From Candidatus Thalassarchaeum betae (GTDB lineage Archaea; Thermoplasmatota; Poseidoniia; Poseidoniales; Thalassarchaeaceae): a DNA stretch of 64,000 nucleotides. Every line of letters starts with the position of its first letter. The first letter of the stretch is position 1. The notes beneath the pieces were generated by a model. The model was given only the letters and a program-made list of their open reading frames with translations, searched no databases and had not been told where the DNA came from. The stretch is taken from assembly GCA_003193925.1 (NCBI GenBank), contig PSPG01000008.1:73848-137847 (forward strand), given 5' to 3'. Both the position numbers and the translations under genes were made by a program. Below are positions 14,860 through 20,142 of this stretch, piece after piece.

Positions 14860-16362
14860 ATGAGTGCTTACGACGAGTTGCTGGAGCGACTGAAGGACAT
14901 CGATATGATCGGCCAGATTGGCGGCCTCTTGGGCTGGGACCAAGAGGTCCTGATGCCGCCCAAGGCCGCCGCACTGCGCGCCGAGCAGCTGGCTTGGGCC
15001 TCCAAGGCAGGTCACATGCGACTGACCGACCCCCGAATCGGGGAGCTGCTCGAGGAGCTCGAGGCTAGCGAGGAGCTGGACGATGTCCAAGCGGCCAACA
15101 TCAGGCTCGCTCGCGAGTCGTATGACAAGGCCACCAAGCTGCCGACCGAGTTCGTCGCCGAGATGGCCAAGCACCGCTCCGAGTCACTGGTATCATGGAC
15201 CGAGGCTCGGGCGAAGGACGACTTCTCAATCTTCCGCGATAATCTCGCCAAGTCAATCGACCTCGCCCGCCAGAAAGCGGACTACCTAGGCTTTGACGAG
15301 TTGCGCTACGACGCGCTGCTAGATATCTACGAGACTGGGCTGACCGTGGCTAGGCTCGACCCGCTGTTCGCAGGATTGCGAGACAGCGTCGCGCCCCTGA
15401 TCAAAGCCGTAGTAGAGAGCGAAAACCGCCCCGACATGTCGTGGGTAGAGGGGAACTCCTGGGCTCAGTCCGGACAGGAGGCGCTCAGTCAAGGGGTGAC
15501 CGAGGCCATCGGATTCGACTTCGACGCCGGCCGCCGGGACGTCTCGACCCACCCGTTCTGCGGCGGGACGAACCCGGACGACGTGCGCTGGACGACTCGC
15601 TACAGCGAGTCCGACCCGTTCGGCTCACTGTACGGCTCGATGCACGAGACAGGTCACGGGACCTATGAGCAGGGGCGCCGGCGCGACCTTGACTTCCAGC
15701 CCGCCGGCGAGGCCAATGGATTGGGCGTCCATGAGAGCCAGAGCAGGATGTGGGAGAACCAAGTGGGTCGCTCAAGGGAGTTCTGCGAGTGGGTCCTGCC
15801 GCTGTGGCAGCAGCACTTCCCCGAGAACATGGAGGGTGTCAGCGCCAAGGCGCTGTGGCAGGCCGTCAACCTCGTCGAGCCGAGCCTGATACGGGTCGAG
15901 GCCGACGAGGCCACCTACAACCTCCACATCATGATCCGCTACGAGATCGAGAAGAGGCTAATCGCCGGTGACCTCGAGGTCGACGACCTGCCGGACGCCT
16001 GGGACGACATGTACGAGAAGTTCCTCGGTATCCGCGCACCCAACCGCGCCCTCGGCGTGCTGCAGGACATCCACTGGTCCATGGGGGCCTTCGGCTACTT
16101 CCCCACCTACACTCTGGGCAATTTGTACGCCGCGCAACTGCTGGCCGCCGCGCGCGAGGACCTGCCCGAGCACGACGAGCAGATCAGGCGCGGTGAGTTC
16201 GCACCACTGCTCGCTTGGATGCGCGAGCACGTGCACCAACGCGGCAGCATACTCGAGCCAGCCGACCTCATCGAGGAGGCGACCGGCTCGCCGCCCTCCC
16301 CCGACGCTTTCGTCGAGTATCTGCAAGACAAAGTCGAGCGGCTCTATGGCGTCACTGCCTGA
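14860..16362 (+). CDS. Carboxypeptidase M32 (Taq)
   Basis: HPF, HETGH, HESQS, IRVEADE, QDIHW, GYFPTYTLG. Confidence 0.96.
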   Translation: MSAYDELLERLKDIDMIGQIGGLLGWDQEVLMPPKAAALRAEQLAWASKAGHMRLTDPRIGELLEELEASEELDDVQAANIRLARESYDKATKLPTEFVAEMAKHRSESLVSWTEARAKDDFSIFRDNLAKSIDLARQKADYLGFDELRYDALLDIYETGLTVARLDPLFAGLRDSVAPLIKAVVESENRPDMSWVEGNSWAQSGQEALSQGVTEAIGFDFDAGRRDVSTHPFCGGTNPDDVRWTTRYSESDPFGSLYGSMHETGHGTYEQGRRRDLDFQPAGEANGLGVHESQSRMWENQVGRSREFCEWVLPLWQQHFPENMEGVSAKALWQAVNLVEPSLIRVEADEATYNLHIMIRYEIEKRLIAGDLEVDDLPDAWDDMYEKFLGIRAPNRALGVLQDIHWSMGAFGYFPTYTLGNLYAAQLLAAAREDLPEHDEQIRRGEFAPLLAWMREHVHQRGSILEPADLIEEATGSPPSPDAFVEYLQDKVERLYGVTA

Positions 16363-16412
16363 GCGACTTGCCTACGCGAAAGCCCGATAGCGGAGCATCG
16401 GGGTGTGGAGCC

Positions 16413-17501
16413 ATGGGCGGCCATACCTTGGAGGGGCTCGCATCGCTGGTGCGCAACCTCGGCAGCGCCTGCACCTTGCTGCGCATTGCCGACGACGACC
16501 TGCTGGCTGGCTCGCAAGAAGGAGAGCTGATATGCTGGTCAGTCGAATCCGGCACCGAGCGCTGGAGGGTCGAGGTCGACGGGCCATTGTCCGACCTCGC
16601 CATCGACGGCGGTCGTGTCTACGCCTCGGCCTCAGCCAGCCTGCACGCGATTGACCTGGATACTGGCGAGATTCTCTGGAGTCGGGGGCTCGAGGGGGCG
16701 AGCGACTACGTCCAAGCATGGGACGGCAGCGTCTGGGCTGTGTCCTCGGTCTATGAGATCGAGGTTTCCGACTACACCGAGTCGACTGTCTGGAGATTCG
16801 ACGGAATGGGGGAGCTGCAGGAGCGCTGGACTGTGCCTGAACGCGCTTGGCACTTCGGACTGCACGAAGACGGGGGCGTCCTGCTCGGTCTCGGCAGACC
16901 CCGCTGCGGGTTCCTGAGAATCCGAAGCGGTGAGGAGCCTGAGCATCACCAGATCGAGGGTGACAGCCCCGTCACAGTCGGAGCCTGCGGTTCGAGCGGT
17001 CGGTTCCTGATTGGCCACTCCGACGGAAGCGTCAGTACGATCGTCGGCTCCGACGCGAAGACCGCAGGCGAGGGGTCGTCGCCGGTTCGTGCCATCACCG
17101 GCCACGGCGACGATTGGATCGCCGGTCAGGAATCGGGCCAAGTCGTCTCGAGCCGGGGTTGGACCACGACGGCGGCCGGCTCGGTGGACTCGCTCTCGAT
17201 GGGGCCCTCGACATCCGAGGGCGAAGCCGTCTGGGTATCCTCGTGGAAAGGAGACGGGGTGAGAATATCGGTCCTCGACCCAGACGGCGGCGGCTCCCTG
17301 CTGGAGTTCGACCACGGCCATAGGACAAGGCACATCCAAGCGAGCGCAGGTAAAGTCGTCCTAGGGGACTCCAGGGGGCGAATTCACCTGATCGAGGCAG
17401 GGGTCCTTACAAGGCGCGTGAAGGAATCGCCCGTGCCTGCCTCTGACGATGAGAATCGGGAGCGCCTGATGGAGCGTCTGAGGCAGCTTCGCGGCTCTTG
17501 A
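16413..17501 (+). CDS. PQQ-like/WD40 beta-propeller protein
   Basis: ESGTERWR, LHAIDLDTGEILWS blade repeats. Confidence 0.7.
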   Translation: MGGHTLEGLASLVRNLGSACTLLRIADDDLLAGSQEGELICWSVESGTERWRVEVDGPLSDLAIDGGRVYASASASLHAIDLDTGEILWSRGLEGASDYVQAWDGSVWAVSSVYEIEVSDYTESTVWRFDGMGELQERWTVPERAWHFGLHEDGGVLLGLGRPRCGFLRIRSGEEPEHHQIEGDSPVTVGACGSSGRFLIGHSDGSVSTIVGSDAKTAGEGSSPVRAITGHGDDWIAGQESGQVVSSRGWTTTAAGSVDSLSMGPSTSEGEAVWVSSWKGDGVRISVLDPDGGGSLLEFDHGHRTRHIQASAGKVVLGDSRGRIHLIEAGVLTRRVKESPVPASDDENRERLMERLRQLRGS

Positions 17502-17558
17502 ATTCAATAGAAATTAACAGTTGGGTACCCCTGTTTCCGGTGGACTGCGGGTCTGTTT

Positions 17559-17572
17559 GAAAAGGTTTAAGT
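17559..17572 (+). promoter_or_regulatory. Archaeal BRE-TATA promoter
   Basis: GAAAAGG-TTTAAGT; pyrimidine-purine step T/G17597 at canonical spacing. Confidence 0.7.
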
Positions 17573-17596
17573 GGGTACACCTGCCCTGTCATCTTT

Positions 17597-18440
17597 GCCG
17601 CTTCTTTGGAGTGGTGTGGGGGCGCTTCGGCGCGACCCGCGGGCCACAGAACGAAGCCCCGAGAAAGGGGCGGCGGAACCCGGGATCTGGAAAGAGAACG
17701 GGGAAGAGTCGGAACGCCTGTAGGCGGGAAGACGGCGGGAGAGCCGAAGCGGACGAGAGTGGAGAGAACCGGAGAGAACTGGACGAAAGGAAGGGGGAGG
17801 AAGGGGAAAGGAAGCTGGAGGAAGCGGAGGGGGAAGCTGAGGAAAACGTAACCGAACTGGAGAGAACTGGACGCAAGGAAGGGGAAGGAAGGGGAAAACA
17901 CAACCGAGGCAGAGGAACCATCCCGAAGAGATACGCGCGGAAGGGGGAGGAGACGAACCTGGAGGCGGCGTGGAGAACGAAGTGGAGAGACCGACGGGAA
18001 CCGGACGCAAGGAAGGGGAAGAACGGGAAGGAAGCGGAGGAGGAACACGAGTGAACGAGGGCGGAGAGATCCGTGGAGGAAGCTGTATCGGACCGTGGAG
18101 AGAACCGGAGAGAACTGGACGCAAGGAAGGGGGAGGAAGGGGAAGGAAGCGGAGAACGCGAAGGGGGGGGAAACGCCCTTGGAGAGAGAAGATGAGCGAA
18201 GTGGAGAGAACCGGAGAGAACTGGACGCAAGGAAGGGGGAGGAAGGGGAAGGAAGCGGAGCGCGACGAAGTGGAGAGAACCGGAGAGAACTGGACGCAAG
18301 GAAGGGGGAGGAAGGGGAAGGAAGCGGAGGAGTCTACCCGGGGAAGCCCGGGCCTTAGGGCCCGGGGGACACCCGGACCCTGCGGAGTATGCAGGGGGGG
18401 AAGCTCCCCCATGTGCGGAACCCCCTGCTGCTCCCACCTG
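17597..18440 (+). ncRNA. Candidate large structured ncRNA of unknown family
   Basis: Upstream promoter; GC hairpins at both ends including GCGC-UUCG-GCGC; internal frame-independent repeats; no credible CDS; ends approximate. Confidence 0.5.
17759..18329 (+). repeat. Array of 60-nt purine-rich repeats with variable spacers
   Basis: GTGGAGAGAACCGGAGAGAACTGGACGCAAGGAAGGGGGAGGAAGGGGAAGGAAGCGGAG exact at 18095, 18201, 18270; degenerate or partial near 17759, 17857, 17982. Confidence 0.95.
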
Positions 18441-18487
18441 TACCGCCAAGTACGTCATCGGCCCACCTTGTCAGCGTTACAATCATT

Positions 18488-18506
18488 GCGGAGCGTTTCG
18501 CTCCGC
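18488..18506. terminator. Perfect hairpin downstream of fumC; possible terminator or 3' stabiliser
   Basis: GCGGAGCG-TTT-CGCTCCGC. Confidence 0.35.
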
Positions 18507-18540
18507 TTGAGACGGTTTCGGAAGGCTGAGAAAATCACCG

Positions 18541-20142
<1,602 letters not shown>

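Follow-up and report, generated by a model that had tools for sequence, protein, structure and literature searches.

Locus and promoter

Marine Group II (MG-II) archaea, of which no member is in culture, rank among the most abundant microbes of the surface ocean. We analysed a stretch of 64,000 nucleotides (nt) from one of them, Candidatus Thalassarchaeum betae (GenBank assembly GCA_003193925.1, contig PSPG01000008.1, positions 73,848 to 137,847), hereafter referred to as the window. Within it, a gap of 1,039 nt between two convergent genes holds an array of purine-rich 60-nt repeats. According to our analysis, these repeats are amplified modules inside a large, conserved and abundant non-coding RNA (ncRNA) that is encoded on the + strand at positions 17597 to 18440. 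The RNA nature of this element is close to certain. It represents a new archaeal family of large ncRNAs, whose transcripts are already in print but are read as protein-coding in the passages and table rows of the published study on which we draw (Hou et al., 2016; PMC5069720). The features of the locus, given in window coordinates, are as follows.

16215-17501, + strand: PQQ/BamB-like beta-propeller gene, upstream neighbour of the RNA gene
17503-17552, + strand: conserved upstream element, following the stop codon of the beta-propeller gene and preceding the TATA box
17560-17575, + strand: archaeal promoter resembling a B recognition element and TATA box, AAAAGGTTTAAGTG, with GGTTTA invariant in 12 of 12 sequences of the genus
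17597-18440, + strand: RNA gene of about 845-870 nt, single copy, with conservation reaching to about 18466
18488-18506, no strand assigned: perfect hairpin GCGGAGCG-UUU-CGCUCCGC, situated between the RNA and the fumarase stop codon, conserved in the genus
18541-20142, - strand: class II fumarase/aspartase gene, convergent downstream neighbour, with an N-terminal ribbon-helix-helix domain

The start of the RNA is predicted at G17597, the G of TTG directly followed by CCGC. An alignment of 12 sequences of the home genus becomes sharply invariant at 17595 (TTGCCGCTTC), and the centre of the TATA box lies about 27 nt upstream of the predicted start, which is the spacing that archaeal promoters follow as a rule. 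The TATA-like sequence AAAG(G/T)TTTAT is found at equal distance in most of the other genera viewed. In g3, g12 and g16 (genera are numbered here, with g1 as the home genus) the box is only loosely TATA-like and lies outside our strict search pattern. The upstream element is conserved in the genus alignment and recurs 5' of the RNA in g4, g5, g12, g14, g2, g3, g16 and g9. It is partly palindromic in the relatives (CCAGTGGAAA ... TTTCC.CTGGAAA), and it may be either a promoter-proximal factor site or a terminator of the upstream gene.

At the other end, the conserved RNA finishes with ...GCUCCCACCUG at 18430-18440, and conservation runs on to AUCGGCCC (about 18466). In the genus alignment the 3' domain terminates in ...GCTCCCACCTG (18440), which is followed by ATCGGCCC. 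Contigs assembled from RNA libraries cover positions 17570-18442. The hairpin at 18488-18506 is likely a terminator, serving the RNA, the fumarase gene or both.

Purine-rich repeats

An earlier note on this DNA, made from the letters alone, had described three exact copies of a 60-nt unit and three degenerate ones. We find the exact copies at 18095-18154, 18201-18260 and 18270-18329, with the offsets of 106 and 69 nt and the spacers of 46 and 9 nt that had been given for them, and the degenerate copies at 17759-17820 (matching at 95%), 17854-17896 (95% over positions 8-50 of the unit) and 17982-18039 (87%). CGAA precedes three copies, as described, namely those at 17982, 18201 and 18270, and the unit is indeed bipartite, with GGAGAGAAC twice and GGAAGGGG twice within the 60-mer. 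Its purine content had been put at 51 of 60 and is 52 of 60 on recount. Tandem Repeats Finder reports the last two exact copies as a perfect tandem with a period of 69 nt (1.9 copies, 100% identity).

A search of the organism's own genome with the 60-mer, which the earlier note had proposed, gave no further match outside the locus. The region of about 17634-18380 also holds the only 200-nt segments of the genome (1,479,542 bases in 23 contigs) that consist of at least 78% purines or pyrimidines. Because the purine stretch is unique in the genome and the 60-mer has no other genomic match, the occurrence of the repeats is far beyond chance. Independent RNA-library contigs reproduce the copy-spacer-copy junction (run X2, records 14 and 15), and a further RNA contig (run X1, record 4) spans the junction between the last copy and the 3' domain at 18309-18387 with 0 differences. 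The number of 69-nt units is not fixable from such short contigs. The array explains the assembly breaks of the home genus at this locus, where it is interrupted by contig ends in at least six assemblies.

Conservation and RNA structure

Across the home genus, 17 of 20 other genomes share the whole gap of 1,039 nt at 76-83% identity. This is comparable to the end of the fumarase gene (77-90%), while the end of the beta-propeller gene is barely alignable, with a match at 1 of 11 loci. The genus alignment shows an invariant, GC-rich 5' domain and an invariant 3' domain, and in the central region between them module copies are gained and lost via indels of 1, 9, 10, 20, 26, 39 and 44 nt.

In order to describe the structure beyond the genus, we used a family alignment of 19 sequences from seven genera (35-64% GC). 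The consensus structure contains 88 predicted pairs. Compensatory double changes occur at 50 of these, compared with 32.2±2.6 in column shuffles and 12-17 when the partners are slid by 1-3 columns. Paired cells amount to 92.9% (81.1% in the shuffles, 39-44% when slid), and the covariation score is 0.395 (0.184 and 0.065-0.083, respectively). None of the five measures was attained by any of the 500 shuffles (0/500), a result to be read with the caveat that the sequences are related and that the tested structure was derived from the same alignment. In 18-19 of the 19 sequences, several G·U pairs do not vary. Since these would be A·C on the opposite strand, the RNA corresponds to the + strand. 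The structured domains are the following.

17597-17742, + strand: structured 5' domain, whose consensus folds with compensatory changes
17736-17925, + strand: long-range helix of CGGGA 17736-17740 and UCCCG 17921-17925, closing a domain that holds module copies 1 and 2
18326-18440, + strand: structured 3' domain with nested GC-rich hairpins, a terminal stem and the tail CACCUG (helices 5 and 18-21)

The hairpins of the 5' domain comprise a terminal CUUC-UUU-GGAG, an irregular GGUGUGGGG.../...CCCGCGGGCCAC, GCCCC-GAGAAA-GGGGC and CGCC-UGUA-GGCG, and the domain folds as a single sequence with -68.8 kcal/mol (z = -3.4 against shuffles). In the helix that closes the second domain (helix 8, 17736-17740/17921-17925), 5 of 5 pairs have changed on both sides and 100% of the cells are paired. 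The 3' domain (-66.4 kcal/mol, z = -2.07) pairs back to the 5' domain through UCUACCCG (CGGG 17699-17702 with CCCG 18337-18340). Its terminal stem is formed by GGAGU 18384-18388 and GCUCC 18430-18434, and CUCCCA is conserved in every family member viewed. The element thereby combines what is generally found in structured ncRNAs, namely covarying helices, a promoter of its own, a transcript and conservation beyond that of its neighbours. The earlier note had placed the constraint on this DNA at the level of the nucleic acid, and this part of its view holds, with covariation, indels that are not multiples of three and the loss of reading frame in its favour. The repeats do not stand alone, however, but belong to a large ncRNA that the note had not recognised.

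None of 4,227 Rfam models reached its gathering score on the element. At E <= 10 there were four chance-level matches only, and at E <= 1 there were none on six members from other genera. The best match below threshold, ilvH on the 3' hairpins (25.6 bits, cut-off 55.1), is attributed to chance. An RNase P RNA or signal recognition particle (SRP) RNA carrying an insertion was also considered and rejected, because both RNAs are located elsewhere in the genome (RNase P RNA with 227 bits on contig C16, archaeal SRP RNA with 123 bits on contig C19).

Module anatomy and copy number

The six copies of the repeat unit differ in age and in their place within the RNA.

17759-17820, + strand: module copy 1, degenerate, GAAA loop; ancestral module 1, present in nearly all genera
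17854-17896, + strand: module copy 2, degenerate; species-specific insertion, a 26-column gap in the 11 other genus sequences
17982-18039, + strand: module copy 3, degenerate; ancestral module 2, enclosed by helix 11 (CGUG 17969-17972 / CACG 18046-18049)
18095-18154, + strand: module copy 4, exact; inserted in the region of helices 15/16, with a 20-nt extension in 5 of 12 genus sequences
18201-18260, + strand: module copy 5, exact 60-mer
18270-18329, + strand: module copy 6, exact; unique to this species, standing in place of a short covarying hairpin of the relatives

The core of the module reads AAC-Y-G-G-A-C / GNRA / G-G-A-A-G-G and continues with GGAAGGAA. A pattern search gave 72 matches in 27 sequences, and four of these matches look off-target. 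At orthologous sites the loop alternates between GCAA, GAAA and GAGA, and the outer positions of the stem stay Watson-Crick or G·U (C or U opposite G). The fourth stem position covaries, with G·A in g1, g4, g11 and g15 and A-U in g13 and g17. The sequences thus fit a short hairpin with tandem G·A pairs below a GNRA tetraloop and with single-stranded GA-rich tails, in which two or three Watson-Crick pairs are followed by tandem G·A/A·G pairs, a C-G pair and the tetraloop. Because the repeat unit lacks a stable canonical fold (-5 kcal/mol, z about 0), the tails are taken to be free.

Most genera have one or two module copies, one g11 genome (G074) has four, and the home genus ranges from two to six. 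Since the last three copies in our sequence are identical, they represent a very recent duplication. The hairpin that copy 6 replaces is of the type GGGCAC-UAGAG-GUCCC in most relatives. RNA contigs show their form too, with 17 letters between the two sides of the joint.

Coding potential

The transcripts of this locus have been annotated on MG-II fosmids as genes for intrinsically disordered proteins rich in Glu, Arg, Lys and Gly (Hou et al., 2016). Such a reading can point to open frames of 177-201 amino acids (aa) on the + strand and 281-289 aa on the - strand, and to annotated coding sequences (CDSs) in public records that show very high RNA-seq coverage in the table rows consulted (PMC5069720). 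The open frames are, however, accounted for by composition. The longest has 200 codons on the + strand and 283 codons on the - strand, compared with 131±40 and 216±49 in shuffles, which places them within 1.4-1.7 standard deviations. In AT-rich genera the longest + strand frame has just 62-81 codons.

Nor is the frame kept, either within the home genus or between genera. Among pairwise indels within the home genus, 28 of 126 are divisible by 3, and the mismatches there show no codon periodicity (mod 3 counts of 32/30/37, 34/27/41, 41/39/47 and 32/30/44). Across 19 sequences, the spacing of five conserved anchor pairs takes all three residues mod 3. The read-through stretch of one single frame on fosmid KF900410 is split over two different frames in our window, and none of the four long open reading frames (ORFs) overlapping the repeats was matched by Pfam. 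A mapped transcription start site (TSS) falls inside the annotated 5' ORF, according to the published table rows (PMC5069720), and the covariation described above is strong. We therefore give the disordered-protein reading hardly any credence. On present evidence, at least the Glu/Arg/Lys/Gly-rich group of 'disordered protein' mRNAs is one structured ncRNA.

Expression and published transcripts

Public sequencing runs contain this RNA widely. Among the 24 runs listed, 20 from 12 studies hold part of the stretch (shares of 0.19-0.59), and 16 of these are on record as RNA, being marine, hydrothermal-vent or aquatic metatranscriptomes. RNA contigs were aligned from four runs of three studies. In the flanking bins of the four runs, there was no cover at 16600-17569 and a cover of 0-8 at 18443-19500; the uncovered part counts as no evidence and was left unused. 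Summed word depths (up to 586,112 in run X1; 7,861 for X8, a run of 20 Mb) reflect expression poorly and were not used for ranking.

The same locus is found among the top-expressed MG-II 'genes' of Hou et al. (2016; PMC5069720), where it is read as intrinsically disordered proteins. In the part of their Table S5 considered here, the top MG-II rows after the ncRNA Tan1 (Thalassoarchaea ncRNA 1) are CDSs named 'hypothetical protein (Disordered protein)'. The rows concerned are KF900459 eury_gene231/232, KF900973 eury_gene4618, KF900410/411/409 eury_gene4614-6 and KF901020 eury_gene13, and their translations share long identical stretches with + strand frames of the window (for example VVWGRFGATRGPQ, KRTRVERTGENWTKGRGRKGKE, GGKRPWREKMSEV and GVYPGKPGP). 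This match to annotations of MG-II fosmids is in line with the MG-II identity of the genome. Summed RNA-seq coverage of the matching rows is 48,936-117,839, compared with at most 2,366 for SRP RNA and 1,300 for RNase P RNA, and one matching row has a TSS count of 3,245. In the same paper, 93% of the RNA-seq reads on euryarchaeal contigs are assigned to 13 'mRNAs', all of which are read as disordered proteins (Hou et al., 2016; PMC5069720).

The table further gives a TSS at 290109 of KF900459 (PMC5069720). By hand count (±3 nt), this lies about 28 nt inside the annotated 127-aa 5' ORF, which has its low end at 289754 and its start near 290137. By hand count it also is the G of TTGCCGC, the very start predicted from conservation and TATA spacing at 17597. 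In the literature we found no description of this RNA besides that of Hou et al. (2016), the small-RNA groups of Shi, Tyson and DeLong (2009) lying outside the comparison.

As a side observation outside the window, positions 39157-39331 of contig C4 (G000:C4:39157-39331) are a coding region with Gln/Gly-rich repeats, of the 'collagen-like cell surface protein' type. Proteins of this type form the second cluster of highly expressed 'disordered proteins' in the published study (PMC5069720), and this one, unlike the present locus, looks like real coding sequence.

Distribution among relatives

A covariance model of the 5' domain (R1) matched 99 of 151 genomes of the home family, with one copy per genome except for two in G007. 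Matches were strong in g1 (13 of 14 genomes), g4 (14 of 15), g11 (14 of 15), g13 (11 of 13), g15 (12 of 14), g17 (14 of 14) and g18 (10 of 12), and weak in g5 (8 of 15) and g12 (2 of 15). R1 gave no match in g2, g3, g14 and g16. At the syntenic site, members were found in g5 (3 of 3 loci viewed), g12 (two) and g14, g2, g3 and g16 (one each), and these carry the upstream element, the TATA-like box, the 5' hairpin motif, the 3' end of GGAG-hairpin-CUCC-CA and the convergent fumarase gene. Altogether, the RNA is present at the beta-propeller/fumarase site in all 13 genera of the home family that were examined.

It is also present in one genus (g9) of a second family, where 7 of 28 genomes have an RNA of about 780 nt in the same place. 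In the pattern search these g9 members show the 4-nt-loop form, which is the form that the order-wide pattern caught; that pattern did not catch the home family, and its corrected form was applied to five genomes. Four further pattern matches in g9 were discarded as chance. The RNA is not at the syntenic site in g7, g8, g10 and g19 of the second family and in g6 of a third family (one genome each). R1 is blind in the second family, where the known g9 member escapes it, and it lacks the power to exclude copies elsewhere, so that this absence applies to the syntenic site only. The sole R1 match in the second family (G028, E 0.019) is coding sequence, and a BLAST match in G039 is spurious.

Members of the family vary in length from about 510 to about 1,300 nt. 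All are purine-rich (55-80% per 100 nt), with the home genus at the extreme (76-85%). In G007 the 5' domain occurs twice (G007:C34:72661-73439 and G007:C42:2847-3253, one of them at a contig end), which may reflect a mixture of strains in the bin or a genuine second copy. Within the g16 member (locus L098 of genome G058, about 1470-1900 as oriented), a stretch of about 210 nt without relation to the purine module is duplicated in tandem. The duplication of modules is accordingly a recurrent route of growth of this RNA.

The neighbouring genes deserve a note of their own. A cytoplasmic-looking beta-propeller protein always precedes the RNA gene, and its C-terminus keeps a short basic motif, ERLR.LR., from the home genus to the second family. 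The beta-propeller protein also occurs in g19 and g8, where the syntenic site lacks the RNA. The fumarase begins with a CopG-like ribbon-helix-helix DNA-binding domain (RHH_1, E 2.6e-4), ahead of Lyase_1 (1e-114) and FumaraseC_C, and fumarase frames of 529-543 aa in six other genera suggest that this fusion is widespread in the order. The gene of the fusion protein faces the RNA gene, and the partly palindromic element lies upstream of the RNA promoter.

Proposed function and alternative readings

On balance, we lean towards the view that the modules of this large, structured and abundant MG-II ncRNA are docking sites and that the RNA acts as a multivalent scaffold or sponge. The RNA has a TATA promoter of its own and corresponds to the + strand of the gap that separates the beta-propeller gene from the convergent fumarase gene. 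Its variable centre, in which hairpin modules are joined by purine-rich single strands, is framed by conserved 5' and 3' terminal domains that long-range helices hold together, and the 60-mer is one of these modules. We infer that the modules, each a rigid GNRA/G·A hairpin beside free GA-rich strands, bind a partner, most likely an RNA-binding protein. Changes in valency would come about by module duplication, and the RNA would work like CsrB without being a member of that family. The earlier proposal that the repeats provide repeated sites for a protein is plausible.

Two proteins may be named as tentative candidate partners. One is the always-adjacent beta-propeller protein. The other is an exosome cap protein that carries the genome's only RNA recognition motif (RRM), at G000:C20:20075-20284 on the - strand (locus L192, 1438-2700), where the motif stands at the end of a 420-aa fusion of Csl4 with a zinc ribbon. 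This Csl4-zinc-ribbon-RRM fusion has an Arg/Gly-rich linker and tail, and the equivalent ORF in five genomes of the second family has two tandem RRMs.

Several points weigh against the scaffold or sponge. No binding partner was found: CsrA (PF02599) matched none of 11 genomes (this one and 10 relatives) in a search whose control matched E. coli, B. subtilis and T. maritima, and the RRM fusion is also present in four genera without the RNA at the syntenic site, so that its co-occurrence with the RNA does not discriminate and says nothing. The small-hairpin model is built on one covarying position and the conservation of GNRA, and nearest-neighbour folding does not predict the hairpin. RNA contigs cannot show the ends, strand or level of a transcript, and the argument from abundance draws on one published data set (PMC5069720) and on the matching of its ORF translations by eye.

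The extra copies could also be neutral expansion segments, one of which replaces a conserved hairpin, apparently without harm. The RNA itself would then be functional, and the additional copies in g1 would be tolerated products of slippage or recombination, much like the expansion segments of rRNA, with no meaning attached to their number. A copy number of 2-6 within one genus, three identical and hence very recent copies, insertions at different places and the unrelated duplication of about 210 nt in g16 (G058) would all suit this explanation. The two ancestral modules are, however, near-invariant across at least seven genera with genomes of 35-64% GC, the same module has been amplified independently in g11 (four copies, G074), and it is always the same module that is amplified in g1. 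We regard neutral expansion as possible but rather unlikely. Higher-order RNA particles have been reported for some large bacterial ncRNAs (ROOL, GOLLD), and by analogy the GNRA loops and purine strands might make tertiary and intermolecular contacts that build such a particle here. This would agree with a large and very abundant RNA that has many covarying helices, many GNRA and UUCG loops, conserved terminal domains and a modular centre. A length of 0.5-1.3 kb and a varying set of modules are hard to fit with one fixed assembly, and no receptor motif was identified in the RNA, which makes self-assembly improbable in our view.

Two further readings go back to suggestions of the earlier note. 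One holds that the GGAAGGGG tracts fold as two-tetrad RNA quadruplexes, or the DNA as H-DNA, and that this fold is the function. For the units of this species G-quadruplexes are indeed predicted, since the 60-mer reaches -17.8 instead of -5.0 kcal/mol with quadruplex energies, one quadruplex is predicted per unit of the triple array, and the unit strand is rich in purines (52 of 60). Several other genera nevertheless lack the tracts needed; GAAUGGAAAAUA or GAAAGACAAGC stands in the modules of g13 and g18, and the number of G-runs of at least three drops from 29 in this RNA to 10 in g13. The conserved features are instead the GNRA hairpin and the terminal domains, and an element acting as DNA only would have neither RNA covariation nor a promoter nor abundant transcripts. 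A quadruplex or triplex function has, accordingly, a slim chance. The other suggestion, a sponge for ribosomes in which GGAGG-like sites pair with the 3' end of 16S rRNA (the anti-Shine-Dalgarno sequence), could call on 12 GGAGG and 84 GGA in this RNA. GGAGG counts, however, follow composition: the 16 sequences from outside the genus have 1-4, and two further species of the genus have 7-8. Such sites are not supported by the genus alignment (A1) either, in which the other species have GGGGAAGG in place of the GGGGGAGG of this one. The assembly itself lacks the 16S 3' end. We consider the ribosome sponge very improbable.

A broader version of the scaffold or sponge may be put forward tentatively, as an idea with less than even prospects. 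The element would then be the first class of large 'ornate' ncRNAs in Archaea and would make up most of the non-ribosomal RNA of MG-II, acting as a scaffold, a sponge or a self-assembling particle, and the published highly expressed 'disordered proteins' would not exist as proteins. The RRM-bearing exosome cap or another purine-binding protein could be the cargo of such a ribonucleoprotein.

As a large ncRNA, the element changes the reading and normalisation of MG-II metatranscriptomes and removes a set of hypothetical proteins from annotation. It gives Archaea a large ncRNA that is on a par, in size and abundance, with the enigmatic large RNAs of bacteria, and the gain and loss of its modules offer a clear evolutionary handle.

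Comparison with known systems

The transcripts of Hou et al. (2016; PMC5069720) and our RNA share the same locus, extreme expression and a strong mapped TSS. They differ in interpretation, as these authors read mRNAs, whereas here the frames are unconserved, the TSS falls within the first ORF and the structure covaries. Family-wide synteny, terminal domains and module amplification go beyond what the passages of that paper on which we draw describe.

Tan1 is described in the same passages as an abundant, purine-rich ncRNA of 229 nt on marine archaeal contigs, with unknown function (PMC5069720). It resembles our RNA in its small hairpins joined by GGRAAAC-type linkers, a linker-hairpin style similar to that of the g9 members. 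In contrast, its genomic locus (L112) has its own TATA box and terminator, a length of about 350 nt and unrelated neighbours, and lacks the 5' and 3' motifs of our family. A BLASTN search of L112 against this genome and all loci of the family gave a best E of 0.27. The genome that carries L112 has no R1 match, and its fumarase (46% identical) faces an acetyl-CoA synthetase. The possibility that Tan1 is a fragment of our RNA was rejected on locus, ends, neighbours and sequence. The homologue itself (L112:1328-1673, - strand; CAZMPT010000002.1) extends from the TATA box to a stem with a T-run terminator. It is about 110 nt longer than the published RNA, which may be truncated and has no TSS in Table S5 as far as the rows considered go (PMC5069720). 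A 17-nt Tan1 motif gave 86 matches on genome contigs, compared with about 70 estimated by chance, and L112 was the only real one among three examined.

Small RNAs of the CsrB/RsmZ type sequester proteins, and NORAD is a sponge built of repeats. Our RNA resembles them in having repeated GGA-rich modules within one abundant RNA and a module number that changes fast among relatives. It differs from CsrB/RsmZ in having no Rfam match, in its archaeal host, in being 3-4 times longer and in its large structured terminal domains. A further difference may be the place of GGA, which would be mainly in purine tracts and non-canonical stems and not in hairpin loops; the 84 GGA of this RNA are assigned to purine tracts that do not pair and to the G·A portion of the module's stem, and its loops are GNRA.

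OLE, GOLLD, ROOL and HEARO are large 'ornate' ncRNAs of bacteria that are represented in Rfam. Our RNA differs from them in its archaeal host, its purine-rich composition, its modular centre of variable length and the absence of a match to the 4,227 Rfam models. Like them, it has a function that is not evident from sequence, exceeds 500 nt, is encoded by one gene per genome, contains many covarying helices and is very abundant.

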